A stretch of DNA of 64,000 nt from an uncultured Nitrososphaerota archaeon (GCA_963799845.1 CAWCYI010000004.1:256001-320000), one strand, 5' to 3'; positions 1,435-52,114 are shown, numbered from the stretch's first letter. Notes: a model not told the origin generated them from the letters alone. Numbers and translations: made by a program.

Positions 1435-2434
1435 TTAAGTTCCAGCGGATGGGTTGCCCATGTTCGATTTACTCGTATCCGATTTACGTCTTACAGAGAA
1501 ATCGTAAAAGACAATTACAACAACCACGACGATTGCAGCGACCACTAAAATGTAATCGACATATGGCGTTCCTGAATTACTGGTTGTGATACTTGTCGGA
1601 CCAACAACAGTCGTTGCACTAATAGAAGAGGTAGTTGGAGTAGCGGTCATCGAAGTCAATGAAGTCGAGGAACTAGAAGTAAAGATTGTCAGAGTCGTCG
1701 AACAGCACACCACTGATAGCAGATAACTGGTTGAAGTTACATACAAATCATCAGTGAAGCCGAATCCCGTGCCGTTGCCGTTGGGCGAAACGTCCTGTTC
1801 CACGTAGTGGTATCCGACGATGTAGCCCGTAGTAGGATCAAAGTACACGTCCCATGTGTATTTGGCGCTGAAGTTACCATAGGCGTTGTCTTCGGGGCTT
1901 CCGGTGTAGCTTCCACTTCCTTGCGCAAAAATGGTCGTGTCCTTCTGATTTTCGGTAGGAAGGTAAAAACTGTAATTTCTGGACATGATAGTCATCTGAG
2001 TGTTTAGCAGGACGAACGTGCCACCCACTGGCAGTGCATTATTCATCGCGAACCAGATAGTTGGATTCACATAACCTTGTTCATCGTCAGTTCCGTCAAC
2101 GTACAGGAAGCTAGAATCAGACCACGTGTAACTTCCTGATACGGTCGATGACGTGCTACTGCCCTGATTGTCACTGAACGAGTAGGAGTAACTATAGTTC
2201 GCGAATACGGTCGAACCGCTAACACCGTCCATAGTTTCTCCTCCGGTAACAACGCTCTGGTCCGTGTAGCCCGCGTCAGCTGCCAGTACCGTTTGCGACG
2301 GTCTCGACTTCGTGATAGTTGAAGTAGTCTCCCTGGGAGAATGCTACGGCCTTCGGCGCCATGCGCAATCCGATCGCGGAGACAATTAGAGTGAGCGACA
2401 GAAAGAGGACAAAGACCGGTCTTATCCGTGTCAA
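1435..2434 (-). CDS. Secreted, C-terminally membrane-anchored surface protein (one apparent extra base at 2277)
   Basis: TTG at 2434 overlaps the upstream TGA; signal peptide MTRIRPVFVLFLSLTLIVSAIG...; removing C2277 joins it to ORF 1435..2232; S/T-rich linker and TM helix at the C-terminus. Confidence 0.8.
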
Positions 2435-4098
2435 CCCCAGAATCCTCCGACGCCGTGAGAATGCGCTTCGTGAGAACCGGTGATCTTGTTGTACGTTGTG
2501 TAGTAAGAATTGTGCGCGATGATTAATGGAAAGTAGTACCAGAAGAATGGAAATCCACCGTAGTAGCCTCCTCCATAATAATTCTGTCCACCATACGTAG
2601 ATTGCATCGCCTGCTGCTGAGTGTGCGTGAACTGAACTGGTGTATTGCTCATCCTAGCATTCGGATCCAATTTCTTCGCGAGTTCGTTGTTGACCCCGTG
2701 AACCATCCTGACGGCGAGACTTATCAGTTCGGAACGACCCAAGCCCGTTGCATAATTCCCCAGTATAGACGCGCCCTTCTCCATGAGATCGACTACTTCG
2801 GCAGCTTCGAGTGTTGACATCGAAGTAAGTATGGCAGCTGCCACAAGTGGATATTGCAAGTCATTCTGAATCATATCTACGATTGTGTTCAGCTTCGGCT
2901 TGACCTGATCTACTTCAGAACCTGAGATTGCCAGATAAGCAGAGGCAAGGTCTGTGTCCTCCGAAGTAGAGTGTCCCCAATCATCGAACAGTGATTTGAA
3001 CGCCCGGAACTTTTCGGTTAACTGATCTGATGGAATGTTTGTTATGGACAGAATCGCCGCTGCTTCGTGCGAATCAGTTAGTTTGGAATTTTGCACAAAT
3101 TTGTCGAATGCGGCGTCCGTCGTTTCATCAGGGGTCTTCGCATACAGAAGCGTGGCCGCGATGCCAGCCGATGATTCCTCGGCCACGTTAGCCTGAGTTC
3201 TGAGCTTCTCCTCAAGATATGTCAAGTCATCCGAGAGACTGCTAAAGTCGGCGTGAGTCGCCGTCATGATTTCTGCCGCCATCATCTTGCTTTCGATAGA
3301 CGAGTTGAAACGCCGGAGCTCGTCCATTGCCGCGAAGAACCGCGCCGTCATTTGGTCTTGATCGCCCTGGAGCTTTGCCAGACCTATTGCCACGCTCCAC
3401 AATTGAGACTCATCTGGTTCTGGCTTTGCCGTTTCAGCTTCATTGATGTCACCTCTGCTGTCTTCGGTGTAAACAGGAGCTGGTGCGTAATCGGAAATTC
3501 TTGCTCGAAATGTGGAGACATAAGAACTCGCTCTTTGCGCAATGGCTGTCAGTTCGTCAGTTGTGGCTTTGCTCTCTTGGATAAAGTCGGAGAACTCCAC
3601 GTCGGCAACCCGATAGTTCCTGGCGCCTAGATCGTTCAACATGATTACTCCTGCATCAGTAAGTGCAACATATTCATCACCGAAGGGAACTAGCCTGTCG
3701 AGCGACGATTTTTTCTGCACTAGTTCGCTGGCGTCGAAGTTACTTTCTCTAATGTCCAATTCCTGTTTGGAAAGCGCCTCCTTGTCCTGTTCGACCTGCT
3801 GGAGCTCTCGTTGCTTCTCCTCTTCGCCCTGAAAGTGGAACGTGATGCCTTGAGTTTTCTTCAAGTCCTGAGCGAGCGTCTCCTCGCTCCGTTCTTCTTG
3901 GGCTCGTACGGCCTCAATCTGCTGACTTCTCTGTTCCAAATCGGCAACTTCAGCTGCGGCCTGATCGTAGTCCGCTTTCGAAGTCCGCGAGACATAGCCG
4001 TTGGTCGAGAGAAAATCGAGGTCGCCCTGCGGAATTCGCTCCGTGATCGACTTGTCCGATATTTCAGACAGTAATGTCCATGCGTCGCTACACTTCAA
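2431..4098 (-). CDS. Hypothetical protein: coiled coil, helical repeats, aromatic/Gly/His-rich C-terminal tail
   Basis: 555 aa ORF; E/Q-rich coiled coil at about aa 45-135; repeated xAAILx helices; ends GGFPFFWYYFPLIIAH...HEAHSHGVGGFWG. Confidence 0.8.
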   Translation of the reverse strand: MKCSDAWTLLSEISDKSITERIPQGDLDFLSTNGYVSRTSKADYDQAAAEVADLEQRSQQIEAVRAQEERSEETLAQDLKKTQGITFHFQGEEEKQRELQQVEQDKEALSKQELDIRESNFDASELVQKKSSLDRLVPFGDEYVALTDAGVIMLNDLGARNYRVADVEFSDFIQESKATTDELTAIAQRASSYVSTFRARISDYAPAPVYTEDSRGDINEAETAKPEPDESQLWSVAIGLAKLQGDQDQMTARFFAAMDELRRFNSSIESKMMAAEIMTATHADFSSLSDDLTYLEEKLRTQANVAEESSAGIAATLLYAKTPDETTDAAFDKFVQNSKLTDSHEAAAILSITNIPSDQLTEKFRAFKSLFDDWGHSTSEDTDLASAYLAISGSEVDQVKPKLNTIVDMIQNDLQYPLVAAAILTSMSTLEAAEVVDLMEKGASILGNYATGLGRSELISLAVRMVHGVNNELAKKLDPNARMSNTPVQFTHTQQQAMQSTYGGQNYYGGGYYGGFPFFWYYFPLIIAHNSYYTTYNKITGSHEAHSHGVGGFWG

Positions 4099-4427
4099 TG
4101 TTCGATCGATTTACCTGCGTGAATTCGCTTTTGTTACCGAAGCGTGTACCGATTTAGATATACAATTATCGTTTGAATGCAAGGATTGGAAAGAAGGCGG
4201 GATCTAAGCCCAGAAGAAGAAGGAAAAGCATGTGAGTTCGCGATCCAAAAAGGTAAAAACCGCCTAATCACATCGAGGACTCGTTTTGGTCCGTGCGATT
4301 TTTTGAAGAATCAACTAAGATTGTTTATGATCAAAATGCTTGCTCTGAGGAAAATCACTTTCTTTCTGTGCATTTAGGAGTATTAATACAACCTTTTTGC
4401 TAGTATCAGTGGCTCTCTAACGGGCGT

Positions 4428-11134: not shown

Positions 11135-11525
11135 TCATTTTTTGAATAGATCCATTTTCGACCAGATGTAGATTCCGAAGACAGCTGCAATTACAGTACC
11201 GGCAACGATCGATACTGCATCGATCCCTTTGAAAGGAAAGAGTCCAATCCCGACCATCAGCTATGCGTCCGATGATGTCAGCGACCAGCAAGACGATGGC
11301 GAGCACAGCTCCCCATCTCCTCATGGTTAGGATAAGCACGCCAGCGAAGCAATAGAAGGAGCCAATTAATGATGATACAAGCGTGTACGTCGAAGTCGGA
11401 GTTGCCGAAATGACGTTCAGAAAATTGCCGGTAATGCCGGTTGCAACCTCGGCCAAACCAAAAAGAATCATGAGAAAAGCAGCTACCACGATGCCTCTGG
11501 GGCGGTTCATTGAAATCGATTCCAA
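11135..11525 (-). CDS. Small 4-TM membrane protein (apparent extra base at 11258)
   Basis: Removing C11258 restores ...GRIAMVGIGLFPFKGIDAVSIVAGTVIAAVFGIYIWSK... with a fourth TM and a stop at 11135. Confidence 0.75.
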
Positions 11526-13269: not shown

Positions 13270-14779
13270 TTGCCAAAAGATAATTTTCCCTCCGGAATAG
13301 TCGAGGGATTCTACGGTCCTCCATGGTCGCACATTGATAGGCTTTACATGATTCGATTCTTGAGTGAGGCGAAGTTTGACACATACATGTACGCCCCAAA
13401 AGAGGACGAATTCCACAGGGCCGAGTGGCGGAAAAGATACCCCGAAGCTCTTTCGCAGAAACTGCTCGAACTAATTGAGGCTTGTAACTCATCTTCAGTG
13501 AAATTCGTCTTTACCGTTAGCCCGGGACTCAGCATTGTGTATTCTGATCCGGAAGAAACGAACCTTCTGATCGCGAAACTGCATCACGTCATCGACATGG
13601 GTTGCAGCTGGATTGGCATTCTGCTCGATGACATTCAAACCGAACTCACAAACGATGCAGACAGGCACGCGTTTGGAAGTCTGGCCAAAGCGCACGCGTA
13701 TCTCATAAATGGTGTCAGAGACCGACTACGAAAAGAGAACGGAGAGATTCGGATAATTTTTTGCCCGACATACTACGCGAACGATTACCTCGGGAAAAAG
13801 ATCTCGAGTAACGAGTACCTGAGTGAGATCGGAGCTGAGATGGATCCGCACGTGGATATTCTATGGACAGGAACTCACGTAGTTTCTCAGCAAATAACCA
13901 GAGAAGACGCCTCCGCTTTCGGAAAGGCGATTCGACGCAAACCGATTCTCTGGGATAACTACCCCGTGGATGATTACTTCCGAGAGAATGATCCGCCCAG
14001 ACTCCGTCTGAATTTTGGGCCCTTCAGAGGCAGATCCTCTGACCTTCCTGAATATCTATCAGGGTACTTGTCGAATCCGATGAATGAGTCGGAAGCTTCC
14101 CGCGTTTCGCTGCTGACCCTTGCTGACTATTTGTCAGACCCCGAGGAATATTCACCTGAGAAATCGTTTGAAAGCGCGATTGAAAGGCTCCATTCGCGCG
14201 AGAGATCCTACGAAGCTATCAGCGCGATAATTGCTGCTTCGAAGGCGAGCGTTCTCGACACTCGCGAAGTCGAAGAGCTTCGGCTTACCGCAGAAAACCT
14301 GATCTCCTCGCTTGAAAAGAAATCTGATTGGGAGGACGAAGCGGAAAGTTTGCAGGTCCAGCTGACAATGTATTCGAATTTGATTGATGCGCTCTATGCA
14401 GGTACCTCGAACAAGAAATTCTTGCGGGAGATCGAACCTCTGGCTCGAAAATTGAAGAAGTTAGTCAGACTGGGGATAGACAGCGTCGATTATCTTTTCA
14501 AATTGGAAACAAAGGGGTTCAACGAAGCCTTATGGTCTAGGGTTGAGACAGATGCCGACGAAGTTTCGAAAGACAGGACTCAGATTCTGGGACAGGTAGA
14601 TTTTGGATGGGAAGCTTGAAGAACGAAAAGAAGGTGACACGCCGGAGCAGGGAATCACAAAAGCCGAGCTAGGATTTATCGAGGAACATTCGTCGGGAAT
14701 GGGTCTCCCGAAAGAACAGAGGGACTCTCCAGTCTGGGAGTTTTACGAATATCTCAAGAAAAGCCGGACGGCGAAATAG
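13270..14779 (+). CDS. GH84 O-GlcNAcase/beta-N-acetylglucosaminidase (likely extends past an apparent extra base at 14617)
   Basis: GIVEGFYG, YMYAPK, catalytic LLDDI, FCPTYY, WTG, WDNYPV, NPM; the shifted frame stays open to TAG 14779. Confidence 0.9.
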
Positions 14780-18539: not shown

Positions 18540-18639
18540 AAAAGCAGCTAAAATTGCTGTCTTCGTTCCCAGTTCTGGTTCAATTTCCCGAGCTAATTCA
18601 CGTAAAACAGAATAACCCTAAGTCACGAGTGAGTGTGAG

Positions 18640-20599
18640 ATGCCATCCAAGAGCAGGATATCGGCTCCCTACGGTTCGTGGAAATCCCCCTTAACCGCAG
18701 CTCGAGTCGCGTCTTCCTCAAATGCATACTTTGAAACAAAGCTGACTGAAGATGGCACGGTATTTTTCATAGAAAGGAGGCCGGGAGAACAGGGCAGGCA
18801 CGTTATTCTGCGCGCTAGAAGCGGTGGACGAATTGAAGATGTTATTCCGCCCGAATTTAACGCGCGAACTCGCGTCCACGAATATGGGGGTGCGTCATAC
18901 GTCGTAACGAAGGAATCGGTATTCTTCTCAAATTTTGGAGATCAGCTCGTTTACAGAATCGATCTTTCCAAGTATGGCAGCCCTGTTCCAATCACATCCA
19001 ATTCTCAAACCTTCTATGCAGATTTCATTCTTGACGATAGAAGAAAAAGACTGATTTCGGTCAGAGAGGATCACACCGTCTCAGGAGAAGCCGTAAACAC
19101 CATAGCTGAGTCTAGATCCCAATAACAAGGACAAATTTACGATCCTCATTTCCGGGAATGACTTTTACTCTTCTCCCAGAATCAGCCCCGACGGTGGCAA
19201 ACTTGCCTGGCTGACTTGGATCCACCCATCTCTCCCCTTTTTCGGATCGGAGCTTTGGGTGGGCGACATCTCCGATGAAGGTGCTATAGTAAATCGGAAA
19301 AAGGTAGCAGGTGGCATGGAAGAATCGATTGCAGAGCCCCGTTGGTCGCCCGATGGAATACTTTACTTTGTGTCTGACCGATCAAACTGGTGGAATATCT
19401 ACCGCTTTGATAATCAGGTAGTCGAGAATGTTTATCCCGCCAGTTTTGAATTTGCCGGAGCTCACTGGGTCTTCGGTCTTTCATCTTATGCGTTCATTTC
19501 GAAATTCGAAATTCTCTGCTCTTACTTGAAAGATGGTTTCTATCGGCTGGCTGTTCTCGACGTTCGCTCTAAATCTATCAAGGACGTGGAAAACCCATTC
19601 ACTGAAGTGAGTTATGTAGAATCGAATAACCGGAATGTTGTCTTTATTGCTGGTTCGCCCTCGACTCCTGACGAAATATTTCTCTTCGATCCCCGGAGCT
19701 CTAAATTCGAAACTATCTATCCTGAGACAAGTGGCGAAAAACTAGATCCACTCTATTTGTCACTCCCAACTTCGATAGAATTCCCGACTGAAGGGAATAA
19801 GACAGCATACGCGCTCTATTATCCACCGAAAAATGACGGTTACGAAGCTGGGGATGGTTCCCTTCCTCCCCTTATGGTAATCAGTCATGGGGGACCGACA
19901 AGCCGCTGTCATTCTGACCTGAATCTGGGAATTCAGTACTGGACTTCTCGGGGATTTGCCGTCGCAGATGTCAACTACGGCGGCAGTACGGGTTACGGCA
20001 GGGAATATAGAATGCGGCTTGATGGCAGCTGGGGCGTTGTCGATGTCGATGATTGCGTGAATGTTGCAGCTTTCCTCGCTGATGAGAACAAGGTTGACAA
20101 AAATAGGCTAATCATACGCGGGGGAAGCGCCGGAGGATATACCACGCTCAGCTCTCTCGCATTCAGGAAAGCCTTCAAGGCGGGCGCTAGCTACTACGGA
20201 ATCAGCGATCTTGAAATTTTCGCGAAGGACACCCACAAGTTCGAATCGAGATACCTCGATAGGCTGATCGGCCCGTTTCCGGAAAAGCGCGAATTATATA
20301 GAGAGCGCTCTGCAATTAATTATCTGGATGAAATTTCAGCTCCCGTGATTTTCTTTCAGGGTCTCGAGGACAAGGTAGTACCCCCGAATCAGGCGGAAAT
20401 GATGTTCGATGCCCTAAGAAAAAAGGGACTGCCGACCGCTTACATCGCCTATAAGGGAGAGCAACACGGATTCCGCCAAGCGAAGAATATCTCCAGGTCT
20501 TGCGAGGCCGAACTTTATTTCTATTCAAAGGTTTTCAATTTCGATCTCTCAGAAATTATCGAACCCGTAAAAATAGAGAATTCTCCCCAGTCGAGCTGA
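18640..20599 (+). CDS. S9 prolyl oligopeptidase/acylaminoacyl peptidase (apparent extra base at 19108)
   Basis: APYGSWKSP, RTRVHEYGG, HGGPT, GGSAGG, D..V, EQHGFR; removing G19108 joins the two ORFs into 652 aa. Confidence 0.92.
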
Positions 20600-20608
20600 T
20601 TTTTACAA

Positions 20609-21404
20609 ATGTCTGCTTTCGAACCTTCACGCTTTGATCCCGCCGTAACCGTCGAGCGGGTGGCAAAAAGCTGACGGAACCATCTGGGCCTTGAACGGTG
20701 TCAATACAACCGTGGCGAAAGGAGAGATCAGGGGCCTACTGGGTTCAAACGGCTCCGGAAAGTCAACCCTGATGAAGATACTTCTCGGACTGGTCAAGCC
20801 AGATAACGGGAGGGTAACGGTGAACGGGATCGATCCAGCGGTCAACCCCATACCTGTTCGTCAGATAGTCGGTTATGTCCCGGAGACACCGAGGCTCTAC
20901 GATTTTCTCACGGGCATAGAGTACCTCGATTTTGTCGCGGACCTGTACGGGTTGTCCGCAGAGACAAAAAAGCAGAGAATCGAGGAATATCTCTCCGCGT
21001 TTGAACTGCGCGCTCAGGGAAACGATCTGCTATCGGGGTACTCGCTCGGAATGCGCCAGAAAATCGCAATAAGCGCGGCTCTAATTCATCGTCCGCAAAT
21101 ACTGATACTTGACGAAGCTCTGAACGGTCTTGATCCGAAAACCGCAAAAATCGTGAAGGACACGATTGTAAAACTCGCCTCGGACGGAGTCACAGTCATA
21201 TTCAGCACCCACGTCCTCGAAATCGCTCAGGCAATATGCAAGAAGATTACGATCCTGAATAAGGGTAGCGTAATCGCGGAAGGAACGATGGACGAGCTGC
21301 GGGCGATGGCAAGTTCCGGCGGCGACAATAGCCTCGAGAACATCTTCCTCAATCTGACCGGCACAGCCGATGTAAGGGGGATTGTGGAGGAACTTACCGC
21401 GTGA
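20609..21404 (+). CDS. ABC transporter ATP-binding protein (apparent extra base at 20673)
   Basis: GSNGSGKS, YSLGM signature, ILDE; removing G20673 restores VERVAKSYGTIWALNG. Confidence 0.93.
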
Positions 21405-23014
21405 TTAGTTTCAGAAAAATTTGGATCATAGCAAAGAGCCTCCTCCTTTCGCAGCTCAGGGCTACGTCTACCAGCCGATCCAGTGTGAGGTCCCTGATCA
21501 GGAGGCCGTTGATTCTAGCGGTACTGGACGTAGTCGTTGCGGTCGCGGCCGGCGGTATTTCGTACTACGCGGCGACTGCCATAGTGGGTACGTCATTTTC
21601 CTCGACGCTTTCCCCGATGATTCAGAACGTAGTGGTAATACTGCCTGCGATCATCCTCGGGATCATCCTCCTCATGGGTCTCGTTCTCGAAGTCAGCTCC
21701 GGTGCCCAGTTTGCAAGTTCCGACACTGTCAACTGGCTTCCCGTGCGGGCAACCGAGTACGTTGCGGCTTCTGCTCTCTCGCTCCTGATGTATTATTCCG
21801 TGATCCCGGTCGCGGCGCTCAGCGCGACTTTTTCCTTTGCAATTGTCTACGGTTTTGGCGGCGCCTGGGTTCTCGCCGCCGTGCTTTCGATCTTTTCCGT
21901 GTTAATTGCAACCAGCGTACTTGAAATCCTGAGAGCAGTCCTGAATCGATTCTCGAGTACGTTCTACAAGAGGGGAGGAAAAGCCGCGATTGCCCTAAGA
22001 ATAGTGTCTGGAATTCTAGTCCTGATCGTATTCCAGGCCCTGTTTTATCCTTCGGTGTACGAACATTTCCTTGGGGTAATTACTTCCAGCCTTGGGCCTA
22101 CGTGGTTTGTCCCAATTCTCTGGGCCTCGGTGAGCGTCACCAGTTTTCTGAATGGCAACTTCGCAATAGCCGGCCTGTTCGCTCTGCTGACTATATCTCT
22201 CGCGGCAGTTTTGTTCGCGATTGCAGTTGGAGCCCGATCGAAGTACTGGGTTCCCGCACAGCCAACAATTACGATATCTTCATCGGTTTACTCTCCCGGA
22301 GCGGGATTCGGTTCCTTCATCCTAAATCAGGTAGAACTGGCAATTGCCCGGAAGGACATGCGGGGCCTGCTCAGGCGAAGGGAAATGATCAGGTTGCTAG
22401 CTACTCCGTTTGTTTTTCTCGTAATTTCATTCCTCAGTTCCGGAACCGCGGGGTTTTCATTCACAATATACTTCGGTTTCTTCATCGTAGCGTTTTCGAC
22501 CCTTTTCATCGCAATTTCGGCGATTGGAGCCGAAGGAAAGGCAATCGTTAATCTGTATCAGGCTCCTTTGAAAATACGAGATTTCGTTATTGGCAAGTCG
22601 ATAACACCTCTAGTTTTTGGTTCGATATTCGGCGTTCTCGTTTATCTGATTGTTGCCTTGATCGTTCGAAATGACGCGGTTCAAGCCGCAATCTTCATGG
22701 TGGCAGCAATCGGTCTTGCTCTCGAGATGTCTTTCGTGGGAACATTAATCGGATTTCGGTTTCCAAATTTTTCGGAATCTCCGAGGGCCCAATTTGTTTC
22801 TCAGACAGGAGGCCTTATCGCCGTTCCGGTGGCAGCAATCGTCGGCGGTCTCTCACTCGCACCGTTGTTGATTACTTCGATATTGAAATTTGGAAGTGAG
22901 TATCTGGCAATCGGGTTCGTATCTTCGATCGTTATAATTTTGGTCGCATCGTTCGTATTTTTCAAATTCGCCGAGGGCCAGGCTGTAAAACTCCTCTCGC
23001 AATTGCCAATCTGA
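21401..23014 (+). CDS. ABC exporter permease
   Basis: Many TM helices; GTGA overlap with the ATPase gene; KD...R and EG..I..L...P motifs. Confidence 0.88.
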   Translation: MISFRKIWIIAKSLLLSQLRATSTSRSSVRSLIRRPLILAVLDVVVAVAAGGISYYAATAIVGTSFSSTLSPMIQNVVVILPAIILGIILLMGLVLEVSSGAQFASSDTVNWLPVRATEYVAASALSLLMYYSVIPVAALSATFSFAIVYGFGGAWVLAAVLSIFSVLIATSVLEILRAVLNRFSSTFYKRGGKAAIALRIVSGILVLIVFQALFYPSVYEHFLGVITSSLGPTWFVPILWASVSVTSFLNGNFAIAGLFALLTISLAAVLFAIAVGARSKYWVPAQPTITISSSVYSPGAGFGSFILNQVELAIARKDMRGLLRRREMIRLLATPFVFLVISFLSSGTAGFSFTIYFGFFIVAFSTLFIAISAIGAEGKAIVNLYQAPLKIRDFVIGKSITPLVFGSIFGVLVYLIVALIVRNDAVQAAIFMVAAIGLALEMSFVGTLIGFRFPNFSESPRAQFVSQTGGLIAVPVAAIVGGLSLAPLLITSILKFGSEYLAIGFVSSIVIILVASFVFFKFAEGQAVKLLSQLPI

Positions 23015-23280
23015 GCTGTGGCAAGCTCGACACTGGTGGCACTATAGATGTTGCAAGCTTGAATCGAACGTTGTGAACGGAGTACTTCACAACGAGATTC
23101 AAGACGTTATCATAATATCTGACCTGAGGACACACTGTTGCCGTATTTCAATAAATTAGCAGTCGGATTTTAATTGAATGTATAAAGAATTCATTAGCCA
23201 GAAATACCGATATTTCATCTGTAGCTACCTAATTTAATCTTCGATCGGTGTTGCCACTGAACAATCCATGGTGAGTTGCC

Positions 23281-30716: not shown

Positions 30717-30718
30717 AG

Positions 30719-31648: not shown

Positions 31649-31759
31649 TCGTCGCAGTCGGACGAGAAAGAAAGCAGCGATTTATGTTAATCGCAGCGAG
31701 GTCTTAATTACGAGTTTTCATTGATTCTTAAAGAAAAAAATTCTATCGTTTCGCAACCG

Positions 31760-31868
31760 CGCGTACCTTTTGACGGGAGAGCTACGTTCAAGCTCTGTAA
31801 GCTCAGAAGAGCTTGAAACGAGCTGAATGGAGCTCACAGAGCTCGAAACGAATTGAACGTCGGCACAT
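31760..31868. repeat. AGCT-phased palindromic/tandem repeat related to the dispersed repeat
   Basis: AGCT at 31780, 31791, 31800, 31810, 31821, 31831, 31840; arms AGCTACGTTCAAGCTCT and AGAGCTTGAAACGAGCT; imperfect 30-bp tandem unit. Confidence 0.85.
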
Positions 31869-32123
31869 AGCGTTCTCGACAATCGTCGAGTTGATCACTT
31901 CGTATTGGATTTTCGAGTTTTCGAGGATGTTCTGAAAATTTTAAACGCTATACCAGATCTTTGCTCGAGAGTCTTACGTATGCAGAACTGAATTTTCTCT
32001 AGGTTTCTGCGCATGTGAGCGCTTTTTGGGCACCTGCTTTCTCCAATTGAAACAGCTCGATTCATGACCTTTTTTCCCTGACCAAAACTCTGAAAGCGCC
32101 TTAATCCTTTCAGAGTTAAGCAA

Positions 32124-33026
32124 ATGACTCAAGTCGAGATCATCGGCGTCCCACTCGATCTCGGGGCAGACAGAAGGGGTGTTGACATGGGCCCCTCTGC
32201 CATCAGGTACTCCGGCCTGTCAGAGAAATTGAAGGCCCTGGGCATCAAAGTTGAGGACAGGGGAAACATCGAGACGCCTATCGCAGAGGCGATCAAAGTG
32301 GAGTATTCGAACGCAAAGTATCTCTCTAATGTCAGGGGAGTCTGTCTCCGCCTCTCGAGGGAGGTCTCTGCGTCTCTGAAACAAAACAAGATCCCGATAG
32401 TTCTGGGAGGAGACCACTCGATTGCTATCGGTACTCTCGCCGGGATTCATAACGGAATGAAGAACGAATTCGGTGTCATATGGCTGGACGCGCACGGTGA
32501 TTTCAATACCCCGAACATTACTCCGAGCGGAAACATTCACGGCATGAGCCTAGCATTCTCCGCGGGTCAGGGCTCGAAATGGTTCCCCAGCCCTCCCTGG
32601 CCAAAGAGATCCGTAGATCCCAAGAAGATCGCAATCGTAGGCGCAAGACAGCTGGACCCCGCCGAGCGAACGAACCTGAAAGAAATGGGTGTTCGAGTTC
32701 TCTCTATGGAAGACATCGATAGATCAGGAATGAAATCGATCATGTCAGAAGCGATAAGTCTCGCATCAAGCGACGGGCAGAATAAGATCCACGTCAGCCT
32801 CGACATGGACCTTCTGGATCCGACAGAGGCGCCGGGAGTTGGAACACCGGTCAGGGGAGGCGTGACATACAGGGAAGCGCATCTTGCGATGGAGATGATA
32901 TACGAATCCGGGCTAATGAAATCTCTCGAAGTTGTCGAGGTGAACCCGATCTTGGACCAGCAGAACGCCACGGCGGAACTCGCGGTCGAACTGATTCTCT
33001 CGGCGATGGGGAAGCGAATAATATGA
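32124..33026 (+). CDS. rocF: Arginase
   Basis: GGDHS, DAHGD, SGNIHGM, SLDMD, EVNP. Confidence 0.96.
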   Translation: MTQVEIIGVPLDLGADRRGVDMGPSAIRYSGLSEKLKALGIKVEDRGNIETPIAEAIKVEYSNAKYLSNVRGVCLRLSREVSASLKQNKIPIVLGGDHSIAIGTLAGIHNGMKNEFGVIWLDAHGDFNTPNITPSGNIHGMSLAFSAGQGSKWFPSPPWPKRSVDPKKIAIVGARQLDPAERTNLKEMGVRVLSMEDIDRSGMKSIMSEAISLASSDGQNKIHVSLDMDLLDPTEAPGVGTPVRGGVTYREAHLAMEMIYESGLMKSLEVVEVNPILDQQNATAELAVELILSAMGKRII

Positions 33027-33082
33027 CGAAAACTGATATCTGGAAAGGTTTTAATCCCTAATTCAGACCATTGATATTTGCG

Positions 33083-33292
33083 ATGCCTGAACAATCATGT
33101 CCAGAATGTGGGGCTTCGCTGTTCTATGACACCTCTACCAAGAGATATGCCTGCAAGGGTTGCGGTCTGTACGTTACAAAGGACGAGCTCGTTAACATCA
33201 GGGATAAACTTCACAACCAGACGGACGAGTCCAGGAAGAAAAGGGCCCAGCAGAGCGAATATCTGGAGTGGTGGCTGTCCTCCAAAAAGTAG
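33083..33292 (+). CDS. Small Zn-ribbon protein
   Basis: CPECG...CKGCG; ends EYLEWWLSSKK. Confidence 0.8.
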   Translation: MPEQSCPECGASLFYDTSTKRYACKGCGLYVTKDELVNIRDKLHNQTDESRKKRAQQSEYLEWWLSSKK

Positions 33293-33365
33293 CAAGCCTC
33301 AAGTTACCGAGACTGGGAAACCTTCGGGTTTCACCAGTTATTTTAGAAAAAACAATTAGAGCGGA

Positions 33366-33683
33366 TTACTGTTTCGAAGAAAGGTTCACTTCAATGAAAA
33401 CGTCTTCAGGGACGCGCAGTCTCATGAGCTGTCGCATCGTTCGATCATCCGCATCAAGATCAATCAACCTTCGGTGTATCCTCATCTCCCATTTATCCCA
33501 GGTTTTTGTACCCTCGCCGTTCGGAGACTTCATAGTGGAAATCTGCAATTTTTTTGTAGGAAGCGGCTGAGGACCCTTGACCTTTACCCCAGTTTTTTCC
33601 GTAATGTCCTTGATCTCCTTGCAAACATCTTCAAGGCCTCTCAAGTTCGTACTGGTTAATTTAACGCGCGCAAAAGTTGCCAT
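33366..33683 (-). CDS. rps10: 30S ribosomal protein S10 (uS10)
   Basis: GPQPLPTK, SPNGEG, WEMRIHRR. Confidence 0.97.
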   Translation of the reverse strand: MATFARVKLTSTNLRGLEDVCKEIKDITEKTGVKVKGPQPLPTKKLQISTMKSPNGEGTKTWDKWEMRIHRRLIDLDADDRTMRQLMRLRVPEDVFIEVNLSSKQ

Positions 33684-33761
33684 TTTCTTCGCTCTTTAAC
33701 TCTGCTCAAGGCAATCTGTCCGCATGCCTATTTAGTCTTAACTCAATTGCAGGGTGGTACG

Positions 33762-34449
33762 ATGCAGAAAGATACAACGCCCAGGAAAAAGTACAGGTTT
33801 GACCTTTCTATAGACCTCACTCATCCGTTGGAAAACGAAATGCCGGTTTATCCCGGAGATCCTTCACCGTCATTTGAGCCGGCCGCGACAATCGCAAAGG
33901 ACGGGTCAACTTGACGCGAATGACGCTTGGCTCGCACACGCGTACTCATATGGACGCACCGGTCCACTTTATTCCGAGTGGATTGGGATCGACCAGATCC
34001 CCGTTTCAAGTCTTTTTGGAGAAGAGCTTGTCCTCGATCTTTCCTCAAAGCCTGTCGGGTCTCGAATTTCAGCCAGCGACCTCAGAGAAAAGCTGGATGT
34101 CCTAGTCCAGAAGGATGATTTTGTCCTCTGCTATACCGGCACGAGCGATCTCTGGGGAAATCCGAAAGCGAACTCGAACTTTGGTTATCTTTCGGTTGAT
34201 GGTGCAAAATATCTTGTGTCATAGAAAATCAGGGCTTTCGGAATAGACTCTTTGAGTGTGGAAGAGTTCCATGACCGAGGCGCGCCCACCCACAAGATGC
34301 TGCTCTCAAACGGGATCTTTATCGTGGAATCACTGTCAAAGGAATTGAAGCGCATTTGCGGAAAGCGGATTTTTTTCATAACACTGCCGATAAGATTGAA
34401 GCCCGGAGACGAGGCTCCCTGCCGAGCCATTGCTGTTCCTGTAGAGTAA
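33762..34449 (+). pseudogene. Cyclase/kynurenine formamidase family, disrupted
   Basis: IDLTHP, YPGDP, HTRTHMDAP, GIDSLSVE, H..LL...E; frameshifts in G-runs at about 33904 and 33986; in-frame TAG at 34222. Confidence 0.8.
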
Positions 34450-34461
34450 TTTAGAGCAAAA

Positions 34462-35415
34462 TTGAAAGCTGATCAATGCAGAGTGGGAGTGGCGTACGGC
34501 CCGGAATCAGAGCTTTACTCCTTCCCGGAAAATCATCCCATGAACAGTTCCCGAACTAGACTATTTTTCGAAGCATTGAAAAAAGTGCCAGATGTCGAGA
34601 TCTCGAGACCTGCAAGGGCAACTGATGATGACCTGCTGCTCTTTCACGGGAAGGAGTACGTCGAGTTTGTCAAGGAGAAATCAAAATCAGGATATGGCTA
34701 TCTTGACTTTGGAGATACACCGGCATTTCCGGGAGTTTACGAAGCATCACTCTACACAGTAGGCAGTACCCTTTATGGCCTCGAGATGATTTCACGCCGA
34801 AAAATGGATCATTTTTTCAATCCGGTCGGAGGGCTTCATCATGCTCGGAGGGACAGAGCTGGCGGCTTTTGCGTTTTCAATGATGCCGCCATCGCGATCT
34901 CAAGATGTCTGAAGGAGGGAATATCTCGCGTGGCATATGTCGACATTGATGCGCACCATGGCGACGGTGTCTATTACGGATTGGAGGAGGATGAAAGGGT
35001 GATAATCGGTGACATCCACGAAGATGGCAGGTTCCTCTATCCTGGGACAGGTTCAGCGGATGAGACCGGAATCGGAAAAGCAAAAGGAACTAAAATGAAC
35101 ATACCGCTTTCTCCTAGAAGCGGAGACAAGGAATTCATTTCGAGCTTCGCGGAGATCGAGAATTTCCTTGAAGGTTTTGAGCCAGAATTTATCTTCTTCC
35201 AGTGCGGAGCGGACGGGCTGAAGAACGACCCGATAACCCATCTAGAATATTCTTCAAATGCACATAGCTACGCCACGAAAAGGCTCCATGAGCTGTCTCA
35301 CAAGATATGCGACGGAAGAATAATTGCGATGGGTGGGGGAGGCTATAATCCAGACAACGTGAGAGATGCCTGGATTTCAGTTGTAGAAGGTTTGAAAGAA
35401 AAAGACAGGAATTGA
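34462..35415 (+). CDS. Histone deacetylase/AcuC-family Zn-dependent deacetylase
   Basis: HP, DTP, GGLHHA, GFC, DAHHGDG, GAD, DP, GGGGY. Confidence 0.95.
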   Translation: MKADQCRVGVAYGPESELYSFPENHPMNSSRTRLFFEALKKVPDVEISRPARATDDDLLLFHGKEYVEFVKEKSKSGYGYLDFGDTPAFPGVYEASLYTVGSTLYGLEMISRRKMDHFFNPVGGLHHARRDRAGGFCVFNDAAIAISRCLKEGISRVAYVDIDAHHGDGVYYGLEEDERVIIGDIHEDGRFLYPGTGSADETGIGKAKGTKMNIPLSPRSGDKEFISSFAEIENFLEGFEPEFIFFQCGADGLKNDPITHLEYSSNAHSYATKRLHELSHKICDGRIIAMGGGGYNPDNVRDAWISVVEGLKEKDRN

Positions 35416-35433
35416 GGACGAATAGTCCTCAAA

Positions 35434-36765
35434 CTAGGCTTTGGCGACAGCTTTCGCCGTCTCTGCAACGCCCTTCTCCGTTATTTCGCGAACGACTCCA
35501 GCAGCAATTGTCGTTCCCATGTCCCGTAACGCAAAACGTCCTAGTTCAGGGAACTCTTTGAAGGTCTCGATGCAGAGAGCTCTTAGTGGCTTTATGATGA
35601 CGATCGCAGAATCGCCCGTCTTGATCGATTTCGGCTTCTCCTCGACGGGCTGACCCGTTCTCGGATCGAGCTTTGACTCAATTTCTGTAATCGTCGCAGC
35701 TACTTGAGCTGTGTGAGCATGTAGCACCGGAGTATAACCTGCCGCAATTGCAGTTGGATGATGCACAACGATGATCTGCGCCCTAAAGGCTTTCGCGATG
35801 GACGGTGGATTATTTGCAGGGCCAAGAACCGAGCCTCGTTTGATTTCTCCTTTTCCAATTCCTCTAAGGTTAACGCCGATATTGTCGCCTGATTCAGCTT
35901 CCTGCATTTGCACATGGTGAGACTCGATAGTCTTGACTTCACCCGTTAGCCCTTCAGGCATTACGATAACCTGATCCCCGACTTTCATCTTGCCAGTCTC
36001 TATTCTACCGACAGGGACTGTTCCAACTCCGGTAATGGAGTAAACATCCTGCAACGGCATTCTCAACGGTTTGTCAGTTGGCTTTGGTGGCTGTTCAAAT
36101 TCGTCAAGGGCTTCCTTCAAAGTAGGGCCCTTGTACCAGGGCATGTTTGTGCTCTTCTTGACTAAATTGTCTCCCAGCCATCCGGATACCGGGATGAACC
36201 TGATTTTTGAAACGTTGAACCCGACCGTCTTGAGGAGCTTTTCCATCTCCGCCTTTACTTCGTTGTACCTCGCCTCTTTGAATCCGATAATCGGATCATC
36301 CATTTTGTTTATGCAACAAACGATCTGATTAACACCCAGGGTCTTTAGCAAGAAAGCGTGCTCCCTGGTCTGTCCGCCAGGACCCGTTCCGACTTCGGTC
36401 TCTCCGGGCTTGCCGGAAACGAGGACTACTGCGCAGTCCGCTTCAGAAGCACCGGTAATCATGTTCTTTATGAAATCGCGGTGGCCGGGCGCATCAATCA
36501 AAGTAAACGAATACTTTTGTGTCTCGAATTTTTGGAACGCAAGGTCAATAGTGACTCCTCGCTCTCTTTCGTCCTTGAGGCTATCCATGACCCATGCATA
36601 CTTGAAAGTGTCACCCTTTCCAGTTTTTTCCGATTCCTTTGCAAATTCATCTATAGTTCGCTGGTCAACAGCGCCCATGTCAAACAAAAAGTGACCCATG
36701 GTAGTGGACTTGCCGTGATCAACGTGTCCCGTAACAATTAGATTCAAGTGAGGTTTTACTGCCAA
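35434..36765 (-). CDS. tuf: Elongation factor 1-alpha
   Basis: GHVDHGKST, RGVTID, DAPGH, NKMD. Confidence 0.99.
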   Translation of the reverse strand: MAVKPHLNLIVTGHVDHGKSTTMGHFLFDMGAVDQRTIDEFAKESEKTGKGDTFKYAWVMDSLKDERERGVTIDLAFQKFETQKYSFTLIDAPGHRDFIKNMITGASEADCAVVLVSGKPGETEVGTGPGGQTREHAFLLKTLGVNQIVCCINKMDDPIIGFKEARYNEVKAEMEKLLKTVGFNVSKIRFIPVSGWLGDNLVKKSTNMPWYKGPTLKEALDEFEQPPKPTDKPLRMPLQDVYSITGVGTVPVGRIETGKMKVGDQVIVMPEGLTGEVKTIESHHVQMQEAESGDNIGVNLRGIGKGEIKRGSVLGPANNPPSIAKAFRAQIIVVHHPTAIAAGYTPVLHAHTAQVAATITEIESKLDPRTGQPVEEKPKSIKTGDSAIVIIKPLRALCIETFKEFPELGRFALRDMGTTIAAGVVREITEKGVAETAKAVAKA

Positions 36766-36845
36766 GTTTCATAGTACACCTTTGATAAGGCCCTAATACC
36801 CAACTATGTCTTTTAAACCTTTACCGTTTTCTTGAAAAAATTATT

Positions 36846-37442
36846 CTAACGAGAGGACATTGCGATCCTTTCTTGCTCGTTCTTTCTCTTTATGGAAAAA
36901 CTGTTAGTGTCATTGTTTGCTGCCTGGATAATTTCATCCGCAAGAATTTCTTCCACGCTTCGAGATGAAGAAAAGGCAGCTTGGCGCAAGCCTTCGGAGA
37001 TGAATCTCAAAGCCAAATCCACCCTTCTGCTTGGCGCAATATCAACGGCGACGTGATAAACCACTCCTCCATAAGCTATCCGCGTCGTATCTTCATTTGG
37101 GGCAGCGTTCTCAACCGCCCTAACGATAACTTCGATCGGATTATGCCCCGTCTTCAAGTAAACGATGTCCATGACGGAAGCGACAATTTTTAGGGCCCTT
37201 TGCTTCTTCCCGCCCATTCGGCCGGCATTTTTCGAATACTTCTTGCCAAAGTGCATGATGTTGTTAGCAAGCCTCTCGACGATGTTTACCTCCAGTTTTC
37301 CGAATTTCTTGTGCTCGTGCCTTCCCATCGAAGTCACGGCAATCGACGGCTTTAGCGATATGGCCCTTTGGAGGCCCGCGTCCTCGATCTTGATTCCCGC
37401 TACGTCCCACTTTTCAAATAAGAGTAATTTCGGTTCAGGCAA
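36846..37442 (-). CDS. rps7: 30S ribosomal protein S7 (uS7)
   Basis: IVERL, AVDIAPSRRVD, ERIAMSSR. Confidence 0.98.
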   Translation of the reverse strand: MPEPKLLLFEKWDVAGIKIEDAGLQRAISLKPSIAVTSMGRHEHKKFGKLEVNIVERLANNIMHFGKKYSKNAGRMGGKKQRALKIVASVMDIVYLKTGHNPIEVIVRAVENAAPNEDTTRIAYGGVVYHVAVDIAPSRRVDLALRFISEGLRQAAFSSSRSVEEILADEIIQAANNDTNSFSIKRKNEQERIAMSSR

Positions 37443-37447
37443 ATCAA

Positions 37448-37903
37448 TTACCTCCTCGGTTTTTCCTTGCGGCCATAAACCAGTTCGTTAAGGGAAACGT
37501 CATTTACCTTGTAGACTTCAAACCTTACTCCCGGGATATCGCCCATCGCGCCTCCCGTAGAGCCACCGATACCCTGGATTGCCACTTCGTCGTGCTCGTC
37601 TATGAAATTAAGCGCGCCGTCACCAGGGAGAAACGCCGTCACCTGCTTACCATTCTTCACAAGCTGGACCCTAACACACTTTCTGATCGCAGAGTTTGGC
37701 TGCTTGGATTCGATACCAATCTTTTCCAGGACAATGCCTCGCGCCTGCGGCGCACCTTCAAAAGGATCTGCTTTCTTGTCAAGCATAAGCATCCTACGTT
37801 TGTAATATTTATCAGACCAGCGCAGTCGCTGTCTTTTCTGAGCTTGCTTCCTAGCGGCAAACTCACCATTTGGAGACTTGGACTTGCTCAAAGTACTAAT
37901 CAA
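37448..37903 (-). CDS. rps12: 30S ribosomal protein S12 (uS12)
   Basis: [18 protein letters not shown]. Confidence 0.98.
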
Positions 37904-37936
37904 CCTCTCTGAATCTTATAAAAACGTATAGCCTTT

Positions 37937-38383
37937 TCATGAAGGGGTTACTATGTGGATCGTCTCGATCGAATAATATCGCTTCGCCAAAAGTCTCGCC
38001 TTTTCCGCGTTCCTTCCGCCCTTGCCGAGGATCGCGCCCTTTTTCTTCTCGTCGACGACAACCGTGGCGCTCTTAGATCCATCCGGTTTTTCGGTCATTC
38101 TAATCTCCGTGATCAACTGAGGGTTCAACGAGTTCATTATGAACTGCTTTGCGTCATCCGCCCATTCAACTAGTTCGACCTGCTTTCCGAGAGCTTTCTG
38201 GACTTTTTTGATCGTCTCGCCCGATTTTCCGATCGCGAGGCCCATCTCCCCACGACTGACCACAAATATCACTCTCTCAACCTTTGTGTCGATAACGCAA
38301 TCCCTTGCAGTTGCGCCCGAGATGTTTTGAAAAAGCGACATCAACCCGAGTTCTTCGGAAGTAAGTTTGATCTTGTCAGTCAA
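37937..38383 (-). CDS. nusA: Archaeal NusA (two KH domains)
   Basis: AIGKSG and ILGKGG GxxG loops; conserved operon position. Confidence 0.95.
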   Translation of the reverse strand: MTDKIKLTSEELGLMSLFQNISGATARDCVIDTKVERVIFVVSRGEMGLAIGKSGETIKKVQKALGKQVELVEWADDAKQFIMNSLNPQLITEIRMTEKPDGSKSATVVVDEKKKGAILGKGGRNAEKARLLAKRYYSIETIHIVTPS

Positions 38384-38471
38384 CTCGACGATGTCGCTCC
38401 TGGAAGTGTTTTACGCTTTGACGGCCGTGGGATTAAGTAATTTAAACGAAGCGTTTTACTGAAATTCGGAT

Positions 38472-39072
38472 CTATTCTTCGTCATCGGATTTTTTCGTCT
38501 TCGCTACCTTTTTCGGTTTCTTGGCATTCGTCTCTTCGTCTGACTTTTTCGGTTTCTTGGCATTCGTCTCTTCGTCTGACTTTTTCGGAGACTTCACTTT
38601 TTCAGAATCTTTTTTCTTCTCTTCTGTGGACTTTCTTACCTTCTTAGGTGCTGGCTTGTCAGTTTCGTCCTTTTTCTTCGATTCTTTCTTTGGCGTTGCC
38701 TTTTCAGTTTCCTTTGGCTTTGCTATCTCAGTCTCCGGTTTCGAGACAATCATGCTTCCCGAGTGGTAATCCGAAGAACTCATAAATCCGGACAAATCGG
38801 CATCGCCGGCAGCCCTTAGAGCAATTACCGAAACACGAAATGGAATTCCGCAAGCCCGCCCCAACTCCACCGAATTGCCGCTGAATTTTAATGCGGGTAC
38901 CGAGAGCTTCCGACACTCATCCAATATCATCTGTGGAACATTCGCCGACGCAGACCATACCAAGAGCTTCGTTCCCTTGATCGCGTTCGGAACCTCACGC
39001 CGGCCAACGATGTAGCTGCCCGTTTTTGCAGCTGAGCTTCAGTTGTTTTTGTAGTTCTACATTTTCCGGCAT
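38472..39072 (-). CDS. rpl30e: 50S ribosomal protein L30e with a long Lys/Glu-rich tail (apparent extra base at 39034)
   Basis: Removing G39034 gives MPENVELQKQLKLAAKTGSYIVG...ELGRACGIPFRVS; lies between rpoA and nusA. Confidence 0.93.
38510..38588. repeat. 36-bp tandem duplication encoding KKSDEETNAKKP twice in the L30e tail
   Basis: ttcggtttcttggcattcgtctcttcgtctgacttt occurs twice in tandem. Confidence 0.9.
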
Positions 39073-46252: not shown

Positions 46253-46552
46253 TTACGCCGATTCTACTACAAATCTGTAGTACGTAGTTTCCCCCGCGGT
46301 ATCGCTTTTCCTAGTTATCCGAACCATATCGCCCGGTTTCGCTCCAATCTCCCTCGCAACCGGGTCAATGCTGAAGAGGAACGGAAACTGTTCCTCCGTC
46401 GCATTGAACTTTCCAAGGACTTCCTTTTTCTCGTCAGCCGAGAGGATCTCGTGTTTAGGAACGAGAACGTGATCTGTAACCTTTACTTCTTCTATTACCT
46501 CGTCTTTCTTACTCTTCTTAGCCACAGTAAAATGCGCTCTCTTCGATGACAT
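46253..46552 (-). CDS. rpoH: RNA polymerase subunit H (Rpo5)
   Basis: HVLVPKHEIL, DPV, RKS.TAG...YR. Confidence 0.97.
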   Translation of the reverse strand: MSSKRAHFTVAKKSKKDEVIEEVKVTDHVLVPKHEILSADEKKEVLGKFNATEEQFPFLFSIDPVAREIGAKPGDMVRITRKSDTAGETTYYRFVVESA

Positions 46553-46810
46553 ACCCTACGGTAGAAAACAGATATCCAAAGATCTTGACGGGGATCGGTA
46601 TATACGGATTGTGCCTCGTTTAGCATCAAATCGCCAGGATCTTAGCTCGAAAACAGCTGAAAATCGGGTTCGGGAGTTTCCCTGAGTTCACCGGACTCGT
46701 TTTGAGCCCCGTCTGTTGTGGTTTTCAGGTGCGTCGAAAAGACCTGCGTAAGTCAAAGATTTCCAAAATAATTCTAAACGGGTCTGCTCTAACTAAAAAT
46801 CTCAAAATCA

Positions 46811-46959
46811 AGCTGTTTCAATCCATCAGAGCTTGAAACGAGCTCGTCGGTACGCAGAATTGCGCCCCGTGTAGAAAAGGGCAAAAACGGCATAATAAAT
46901 CAATAGAGTAAAACAATGGCTTTAGGGAGCAAGGCAGGTCCAAAGGTACGAGAAGAAGA
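46811..46959 (+). repeat. Dispersed repeat copy 2, with palindrome AGCTGTTTCAA-N11-TTGAAACGAGCT at its start
   Basis: Matches the reverse complement of 24156..24284; includes a TATA-like CATAATAAAT and the start of a 29-aa ORF (46916..47005). Confidence 0.92.
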
Positions 46960-47048
46960 CCTGACCATTTGCAAAATACGGAAATTCTTTCCCGAAAGTC
47001 AATAAAAACTCGGACGCAAGCTATCGTTTCGATAGTGTCTTTTGAAAG

Positions 47049-50843: not shown

Positions 50844-51682
50844 TCAAGAAGTGCGGGTTGTCTCGGCTATATTCAACTGGCCTAATTCCCACGTCTTCAC
50901 GGTCAGATCCCAAGGAGTTACAATACCTCGATCTGTAAGAGCACAGTCATTGTCCTTCAGCGACAGCAATTCGGCTGCATCTGAGATTTGTTTTCTGCCG
51001 TCGATCCAGGGGACTTCTCCAAGTTCGATATCATCCAATGTTCCATCAAGCAATCTGTTCTGAAACCTCAAGATGTGGCCGAGTCTCTCTTGTTGGAACA
51101 AGTACGCAAGAATCTGTTTGTCAGAGATCACAGTCCTTGTACCTGAAATCTGGACACGTCTGAATTTTCGACGCCCAATCTCCTTCAAGGATACGTCGAG
51201 CTTGTTCCCCGAGAAAGTTGGAAGACAGGGAATGTCACTATATCATCGACTACAAGCTTCGACGAAAAAATTCCAAGATGATACAATTTCAAAAGATCTT
51301 TTACAGAAATTTTTTCATACTGACTTTTTTTTCCATGAACCAGGGCAAATCCAAAAGTGGATGATTGGAAGACATGCAGTAGAGAAAGAATGTCATCGTT
51401 CGAACTGATCGTTCCGGCCAGAAGGGAACTCTCGAGACAAGGAGAATTGAGAAACGAAGCGTAATTATGCGGATTCATTTGCATCATTTTCGAAACAATT
51501 GAATATCCGGAAATAACCAGTGGCCTTGCCTCCGAGGATCCCTGATTCGATTCTATTAACAGAAGGTCGAAATCATTTTCACGAAGTTTTTGAATCGCCT
51601 CTAGGATTATTGTCCTGCCGGATATAGTCTTGAGAGGTCTCACATCCAGACGTGGAAGGATTTCTTCTAGGTTAGCTGCCAA
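50844..51682 (-). CDS. Degenerate four-CBS-domain protein (apparent missing base at about 51203)
   Basis: Adding one A restores RGTKLDVSLKEIGRRKFRRV; shares GYS, FGFA, RRV and GIVTPWDL with 62782..63588. Confidence 0.8.
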
Positions 51683-51696
51683 TTTATTTATTCATC

Positions 51697-52114
51697 CTAT
51701 GGAAATATTTGTTCGCCGGACTCTGCATCCTTCACAGTAATCGCTTTGTAGGGACACATCTGTGCTGATACGATTATCTTTTCGCTTGGAACTTCTCTGT
51801 CCTGGACATCCTTCATCCCAAGTGGTTCGTCCGCATTTCTTCCAAAGCCCAAGTTGGAGTAATCCAGTGCGAATACTTCCGGTGCAAGTGCCACGCAGAC
51901 TTTCAACTCCCATGCATTTCCCCTGCTCGATGCTCAAAATTAGCCTGCGATTGTCCCGAGTCACGATTTCCTTCTCCCCTCTTCTTTGCAAGCTATCCAG
52001 AGTGCCGGAAACTAGACGAATTATCACGTCAGAATAATCTTCGTTTTGTTTCTTAGCCCTTTGTATCGTATCGTATGCTCTTGCAGAGATTTCTATCGTT
52101 ATTTCGTCAGTCAT
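51697..52114 (-). CDS. RHH (VapB3/DUF217-like) DNA-binding domain fused to a single-cluster ferredoxin (apparent extra base at 51899)
   Basis: TIEIS..AY.....AK...EDYSDVIIRL; removing one base gives KCMGVESCVALAPEVF...AQMCPYKAI. Confidence 0.8.

Follow-up and report, generated by a model that had tools for sequence, protein, structure and literature searches.

Two phenomena that meet in the present work are each already known: methylation of AGCT at the N4 position of cytosine (N4-methylcytosine, m4C) in the phylum Nitrososphaerota, and motif-linked errors in long-read assemblies. Persistent orphan methyltransferases with AGCT (m4C) specificity have been reported for 8/8 Nitrososphaerales and 14/14 Nitrosopumilales genomes, alongside persistent orphan enzymes for GTAC (m4C) in 8/8 Nitrososphaerales and for GATC (N6-methyladenine, m6A) in 27/29 Nitrososphaerota genomes (PMC10609329). 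In a Nitrosoarchaeum genome m4C was registered at 5974 of 6224 AGCT sites (96%; PMC6329791), in two Thaumarchaeota genomes AGCT was methylated at 82–91% (PMC8919816), and M.Nca01I, M.NspBD3I and M.TarMY3I are described as m4C enzymes acting on AGCT (PMC11033074). On the technical side, errors induced by modified bases stay in assemblies made from Nanopore data alone, and short reads eliminate them (PMC11610603, Genome Res 2024). Here we analyse a stretch of 64,000 nucleotides from the assembly (G000) of an uncultured soil archaeon (contig C4, positions 256001–320000; hereafter “the window”, with coordinates counted from its first letter), in which one extra base within AGCTGA, or within TCAGCT when read on the opposite strand, splits conserved genes, including that of ribosomal protein L30e.

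These sites resemble the Nanopore errors of PMC11610603 in recurring at one short motif and in giving way to short reads but not to long-read polishing, and the motif concerned is a methyltransferase target known in the lineage. They differ from them in kind, since the published errors are mainly C-to-T and G-to-A substitutions in bacteria, while here a one-base insertion with one particular flank is found in an archaeon whose sequencing platform we deduce. The orphan m4C AGCT methyltransferases of groups HG19 and HG11 (PMC10609329) belong to the same order and have the same motif as the error footprint; G000, too, encodes beta-class N6/N4 methyltransferases with a TSPPY motif and no C5 enzyme. 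However, its two candidate enzymes with this motif are only 29–38% identical to the two methyltransferase groups conserved in Nitrososphaera and Nitrosocosmicus. With genuine pseudogenes the sites share frames that are split relative to intact homologues, but the real ones in the window (33904 and 33975, see below) are reproduced by reads and have no common motif, whereas reads do not show the extra base of the AGCTGA class. The literature searched contained no description of a Nanopore error specific to AGCT in these archaea and gave, in the excerpts available, papers on methylomes and restriction–modification.

Results

False bases at AGCTGA in the window

An earlier note on this DNA had listed ten single-base frameshifts, ascribed all of them to AGCT and taken the affected genes for intact. 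The letters it gave are present at all ten coordinates, nine of which are indeed frameshifts relative to homologues, and its six changes of AGCTA to AGCTGA, at 2277, 11258, 19108, 20673, 29294 and 39034, proved to be exactly as described: in DNA alignments the window has at each of them one base more than a relative, in the form AGCT-G-A or T-C-AGCT, and the frames of relatives run through all six sites uninterrupted. Because DNA identity between the window and same-genus genomes is only 64–86%, relatives alone are unsafe for base-exact indel calls, and we relied on protein frames and reads. Translated open frames of the syntenic contigs in genomes of the same genus and the same family were searched with tblastn for proteins that align to the window in two frames, and switches of frame were registered at 2270–2274, 11257–11265, 19107–19109, 27840–27852, 29299–29303 and 51897–51899. 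One unpublished genome (G001) rests under no claim and is counted among the relatives in the tallies of completeness, DNA comparison, homologues and methyltransferase conservation.

On the minus strand, the extra base 2277 within TCAGCT at 2276–2281 (AGCTGA on this strand) splits a gene of unknown family into frames 2279–2653 and 1438–2343; the corresponding open frame of G004 (441 aa) goes from frame −1 to −2 at the switch, and the window has one base more than G004. On the same strand, the extra base 11258 within TCAGCT at 11257–11262 interrupts a small membrane-protein-like gene, for which an open frame of 184 aa in G006 changes frame and G006 is likewise one base shorter. Two plus-strand genes follow. 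The extra G at 19108, in AGCTGA at 19104–19109, splits a gene of the prolyl-oligopeptidase family (Peptidase_S9 by Pfam; 18622–20596), so that residues 1–155 of the 651-aa frame of G003 align in frame 1 and residues 156–651 in frame 2. The extra G at 20673, in AGCTGA at 20669–20674, severs the first codons of a gene for an ABC-transporter ATPase (20649–21401); the window has one base more than G003, and the ABC_tran profile of Pfam begins at residue 15 of the downstream frame. A short plus-strand gene, at about 29205–29412, is split by the extra C at 29294 in TCAGCT at 29293–29298, where an open frame of 151 aa from G003 changes frame. Finally, in AGCTGA on the plus strand at 39030–39035, the extra G at 39034 falls about 13 codons into the minus-strand gene of ribosomal protein L30e (38475–39070), which sits downstream of rpoA. 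Here the window is one base longer than G004, whose orthologue is a 203-aa frame sharing the Lys-rich tail, and the L7Ae/L30e profile is matched from its position 10 at the top of frame 38475–39038.

Reads that do not carry the extra base

Contigs built from reads (Logan) of four public soil-metagenome runs of one study, X1–X4, were aligned to window positions 19050–39049. X1 holds 93% of the sampled words, while X3 and X4, with small shares (0.16 and 0.09), add little. At 4/4 AGCTGA sites of this segment the read contigs omit one letter at 100% of the covering depth: 5.92/5.92 in X1 and 4.3/4.3 in X2 at 19108; 5.92/5.92 in X1 and 3.44/3.44 in X2 at 20673; 6.6/6.6 in X1, 3/3 in X2 and 2.4/2.4 in X3 at 29294; and 5.65/5.65 in X1 and 4.8/4.8 in X3 at 39034. 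The long X1 contigs at these sites have at most two other differing letters each. One of them (record 1), 2785 letters long, departs from the window in one other letter and two gaps, the latter being two AGCTGA sites. Several read contigs have a length of exactly 151 letters, as would be expected of short-read libraries. Since the extra base is absent at full depth from read contigs of the same soil population, 19108, 20673, 29294 and 39034 are consensus errors of the assembly, in which a false base thus stands between AGCT and the A after it and splits conserved genes, that of L30e among them. The opinion of the earlier note that pseudogenisation is unlikely with L30e affected is borne out by the absence of the base 39034 from the read contigs.

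Apart from these sites, reads and window differ in unique sequence by scattered substitutions that have no motif in common. Single-letter differences at full depth were seen at 20077, 21658, 27591, 27872, 33073 and 33088, which share no motif either and are either strain differences or consensus substitutions.

The link to AGCT in the whole assembly

In a homology-based test, 1248 open frames from 733 kb of loci, all of them DNA of relatives (mostly of G011) except for the window's own locus (L001), which was left out, were compared with the whole of G000. It yielded 46 junction windows (mean length 43 nt), of which 29 contain AGCT (7.6 expected) and 22 contain AGCTGA/TCAGCT (1.28 expected). 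After leaving out nine junctions lying in the window, AGCT is found in 24 of the remaining 37 (5.9 expected) and AGCTGA/TCAGCT in 18 (0.94 expected), and none of 2000 random sets reached either count. Among these 37 the longer word accompanies 17/26 insertion-type junctions as against 1/11 of deletion type. The note had named two findings that would speak against it, short reads with the same indels and genome-wide indels not enriched at AGCT; what was found is the opposite in both respects, reads without the insertion at 4/4 sites and junctions enriched at AGCTGA.

A reference-free test took each base of the genome in turn and counted a site when its removal fused two open frames, each of 300 nt or more, with the result exceeding the best existing frame by at least 300 nt. 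Removal of G from AGCTGA has this effect at 131/3348 sites (3.9%), compared with 1422/173286 (0.82%) for the 63 remaining NNNTGA words (odds ratio 4.9, p 4e-45). Of all 6-mers occurring at least 300 times, AGCTGA holds the first rank; AGCT[G]A is the sole outlier of the 16 AGCT[N]N contexts (3.9% versus 0.6–1.5%), and AGCT is the outlier among the 16 palindromic 4-mers (1.31% versus 0.62–0.97%). The frame-joining sites are spread over 7/9 contigs. AGACT/AGTCT shows a small genome-wide excess (1.2–1.3% versus 0.8–1.0%), while deletion-type errors at AGCT (“C lost”, contexts AG^T and GC^T) show none over the genome, 0.58–0.81% against a baseline of 0.71%.

Of the 57 AGCTGA/TCAGCT sites in the window 6 are erroneous, and 61 AGCTA/TAGCT sites remain, so about 9% of true AGCTA sites (6/67) are affected. 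Scaling up from 6 per 64 kb or from the excess of strict hits (2 of the 6 window errors pass the strict frame-joining test) suggests, as a very rough estimate, some 300–450 such errors in G000. The density of AGCTA words, 1204 per Mb compared with 1472 per Mb in 167 kb of relatives, is too weak a difference to be used.

In G024, an assembly with SPAdes-named contigs, 400 kb contained no AGCTGA footprint. For GTAC, the other m4C motif of the order, a second footprint is only weakly indicated. GTAC occurs in 8/37 junction windows, for instance at C4:765601, C7:23486 and C4:1272333 (3.5 expected; 44/2000 random sets reach 8), and some 6-mers containing it are 2.4-fold enriched in the frame-joining test, although its value in the palindrome scan is only 0.97%.

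Other indel sites of the window

The claim that all ten sites form one AGCT class with intact genes holds for the AGCTGA class and is not supported for position 14617 and the sites of deletion type. Closest to the class is 51899, correctly described as a base inserted inside AGCT: on the minus strand the window has AGACT (51897–51901) where G004 has AGCT, so that a gene of about 139 aa (51700–52114) is split; open frames of G004 and G012 (138–139 aa) change frame at 51897–51899, and the window is one base longer than G004. This insertion, too, is probably a consensus error.

At 51203, said to have lost an A next to AGCT, a frameshift is confirmed by proteins of seven relatives (269–343 aa), which pass from frame −1 to −3 at 51200–51239 within the minus-strand gene 50850–51676, and addition of a base joins the frames. 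Its association with AGCT, which stands at 51199–51202, is unproven, and the deletion class has no AGCT excess over the genome. The supposed loss of C from AGCT at 27853 was not confirmed: the window has no AGCT there, and this guess fits the AGC codon of the relative no better than other repairs do. There is a deletion-type junction (27840–27853, plus strand) in a gene with a MOSC domain (27571–28181); the 219-aa frame of G003 changes frame at 27840–27852, and the MOSC profile of Pfam is split at position 32. Among the read-contig differences no inserted letter is seen there at a bin depth of 6.5, which is no proof of agreement, since bridging of the position by a contig is uncertain.

The extra T assumed after AGCT at 14617 was tried as a frameshift and rejected. 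AGCT is followed there by the TGA stop (14613–14619) of a plus-strand gene for a GH84 beta-N-acetylglucosaminidase (13270–14619), whose NAGidase and NagJ_C matches (Pfam) end normally. The sole homologue found, a 488-aa frame of G009, aligns to 13282–14604 in one frame and ends as the gene itself does, the downstream frames are matched by no protein of a relative, and AGCT[T]N contexts have no excess in the genome-wide frame-joining test. The site is thus not a demonstrable frameshift.

Two one-base deletions absent from the list of ten lie at about 33904 and 33975 (33896–33982, plus strand), some 70 nt apart and not at AGCT, in a gene of the Cyclase family (PF04199; 33792–34446). The 239-aa frame of G004 aligns to it in three frames, in agreement with the DNA alignment, and the Cyclase profile is split. 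An X1 contig (record 6) spans 33033–34513 with 0 gaps and reproduces both deletions, which therefore exist in the DNA; the gene is probably a real pseudogene.

Source organism and its methyltransferase genes

G000 comprises 4.60 Mb in 9 contigs of up to 2.1 Mb, has about 47–48% G+C and comes from a soil metagenome; its marker-based completeness is 86.7%. Besides L30e and neighbouring genes the window contains rpoH, rpoB and an unsplit rpoA. The RpoB proteins of the nearest named records, soil genomes labelled “Nitrososphaerales archaeon”, are 91–97% identical, and judged by its sequence the source organism is a Nitrososphaerales archaeon. A Pfam search of G000 for amoA gave no match and says little, as the control also matched in no genome. 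AGCT occurs 20817 times compared with 18993 expected from trinucleotides (ratio 1.10), i.e. without avoidance; the under-represented palindromes of G000 are TATA, TTAA and GGCC (ratios 0.70–0.85).

Twelve matches of G000 to PF01555 (N6/N4 methyltransferases) exceed the cut-off, one of them only together with its in-frame neighbours, and a search of G000 with PF00145 (C5 methyltransferases) found no match. In agreement with the earlier note, which saw no methyltransferase gene in the window, all 12 PF01555 matches are elsewhere. The TSPPY motif is found in two small PF01555 enzymes, C8:12140-12946 and C6:1380695-1381639. The former is 70–76% identical in 4/6 same-genus genomes, and its protein resembles solved cytosine-N4 methyltransferases over the full length (E 3e-18); the latter is at least 70% identical in 9/12 same-family genomes. 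Each Nitrosocosmicus genome has exactly two PF01555 genes, and these mark out two groups found in 5/5 sampled Nitrososphaera/Nitrosocosmicus genomes. By blastp one of these conserved groups has the C8 protein as its nearest outsider, reciprocally and at 36–38% identity, and the other group is the best match of the C6 protein (29–32%, not reciprocal); either group may be the one for AGCT or the one for GTAC. Searches against solved structures and NCBIfam name no motif for these enzymes, and no NCBIfam match reaches the cut-off. Thus the genome search for an AGCT-specific enzyme suggested by the note delivered 12 candidate genes, none of which could be assigned to AGCT. The statement of the note that AGCT methylation has been reported in marine Thaumarchaeota was correct (PMC6329791, PMC8919816), with the additions that N4-methylcytosine is the modified base and that the group extends beyond marine archaea.

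Dispersed repeats and side observations

The core of an intergenic repeat at 31700–31990 (core 31778–31850) is a degenerate tandem unit of about 10 bp around RAGCTY, and the window copy has 7 AGCT sites at 9–11 bp spacing. It is dispersed over G000 in 125 copies (nhmmer), which contain 599 AGCT in 9162 bp, one per 15 bp compared with one per 221 genome-wide. Only 4/125 midpoints fall in open frames of at least 200 aa, although such frames cover 68% of the genome, and of 115 copies placed between two crude gene calls, 40 are in convergent gaps (about 18–20% expected) and 12 in divergent ones. The repeat has no orientation bias and so looks REP/MITE-like. Its word depth in X1 is 57, compared with about 6; G003 has roughly 30 matches, and an Rfam search with the repeat gave only a chance-level match. 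Of the copies that were aligned (29), 10 read AGCTGACG and 19 AGCT-ACG, and thus vary in the same way as the frameshift sites.

A second dispersed family is represented in the window by 24150–24300 and 46700–46970, copies inverted with respect to each other, with 23 blastn matches each in G000 at 74–91% identity and many in G003 contigs. At 46524–46543, upstream of or at the rpoH start, the window has two bases fewer in a T-run than G004, and the frames of relatives switch; this may be real variation. In the large-contig Nitrososphaerota genome G022, rpoB itself aligns in two frames at C8:374430–374561 (residues 5–48 and 46–1118), with a junction not at AGCT.

Discussion

Based on these data it is rather probable that the frameshifts at the six AGCTGA/TCAGCT sites, together with a few hundred others in G000 and probably the one at AGACT, are long-read consensus errors caused by methylation and not mutations. 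AGCT methylation is the likely and best-supported cause: membership of the order, the published m4C at AGCT and the PF01555 genes together lead us to infer that AGCT is modified in this organism. The contig number and lengths of G000, together with about 12 frameshifts per 64 kb, suggest a nanopore origin of the assembly. The course of events may then be imagined as follows. The cytosine of AGCT would be methylated at N4 on both strands by the organism, the enzyme presumably being a beta-class methyltransferase of the orphan type that every member of the order surveyed so far has. If native DNA was sequenced by nanopore for this assembly, the base-caller may have taken the altered current of methyl-C-T-A for C-T-G-A in many reads, and the consensus would have retained the insertion at about one tenth of AGCTA sites. 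Gene callers would then have split the genes, and the marker-based completeness would have fallen.

Several points weigh against this explanation. No candidate methyltransferase of G000 could be assigned to AGCT; methylation in G000 is deduced from the error footprint, the lineage and the literature, and the presumed platform from the form of the assembly. The errors are insertions, while the modification-induced Nanopore errors published are mainly C-to-T and G-to-A substitutions (PMC11610603). Only about 9% of AGCTA sites are affected, and the search of the wider sequence context gave no clear signal that separates erroneous from unaffected AGCTA sites. Errors require a following A, although, if methylated AGCT were sufficient, one might look for errors at other flanks as well. 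In stretches of 400 kb from each of two Nitrososphaerales-related genomes with large contigs, G021 (4/296) and G022 (12/276), the AGCTGA rate equals that of the NNNTGA controls, with the proviso that their platform and pipeline may differ from those of G000. Finally, the metagenomic runs, all from one study, may be the assembly's own samples, which suits the test of the assembly yet does not provide an independent population.

Some of these observations would be accommodated by a bias of the base-caller or polisher for the word AGCTA that is independent of DNA modification, in which case the insertions would still be artefacts, with no information on the methylome. The requirement for one exact flank (AGCT[G]A, 1 of 16 contexts), the low share of affected sites with no wider context signal, and the two other large-contig relatives lacking an excess all agree with such a bias. 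It would leave to coincidence, however, that AGCT, the one palindromic 4-mer of 16 with a clear excess, is also a motif for which methylation is reported throughout the surveyed members of the order (PMC10609329), and modified motifs have been identified as the source of Nanopore errors that persist into assemblies, substitutions being what was studied (PMC11610603). We consider a bias of this kind a minor though tangible chance.

Considerably more doubtful is that the insertions are real, whether by recent pseudogenisation or through a frameshifted strain dominating the long-read data. The frameshifts at 33904 and 33975 are reproduced by reads, and the genome may carry some real pseudogenes. 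The AGCTGA base, on the contrary, is missing from every covering contig of up to three runs at 4/4 sites, the genes hit are essential or conserved, with L30e among them, the relatives are intact, and the same single change at one five-letter word recurs on 7/9 contigs. We regard a genuine insertion as very improbable. Programmed ribosomal frameshifting or transcript-level correction at AGCTGA, which has the recurrence of one sequence word and nothing further in its favour, hardly deserves consideration, since the base is absent from DNA reads (which refutes it for 19108, 20673, 29294 and 39034), the homologues are single frames without the word at the site, and most AGCTGA sites of the window (51/57, about 90%) are situated in undisturbed frames.

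Under the preferred explanation by methylation-induced consensus errors, probably a few hundred genes of the assembly, at the rough estimate given above, are falsely split, that of L30e included, and such genes bias pseudogene counts, completeness and metabolic reconstruction. The signature is simple, AGCTGA where the truth is AGCTA, so affected sites can be found by screening and repaired through polishing with short reads or through re-basecalling. The value of the finding is mainly practical, as a warning for users of the assembly, and by itself it opens no new question.

One can go further and read the error footprint as a methylome signal, with the approximately 125 RAGCTY repeats (2–8 AGCT each, spaced in the window copy by about one turn of the helix) as dense methylated arrays serving as epigenetic or protein-binding elements. 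This is a speculative proposal, which we hold to be rather unlikely; if true, m4C at AGCT would be maintained in an uncultured soil family of Nitrososphaerales. More generally, the footprint provides indirect support for the view that AGCT methylation, reported as persistent in Nitrososphaerota, extends to this uncultured soil lineage.

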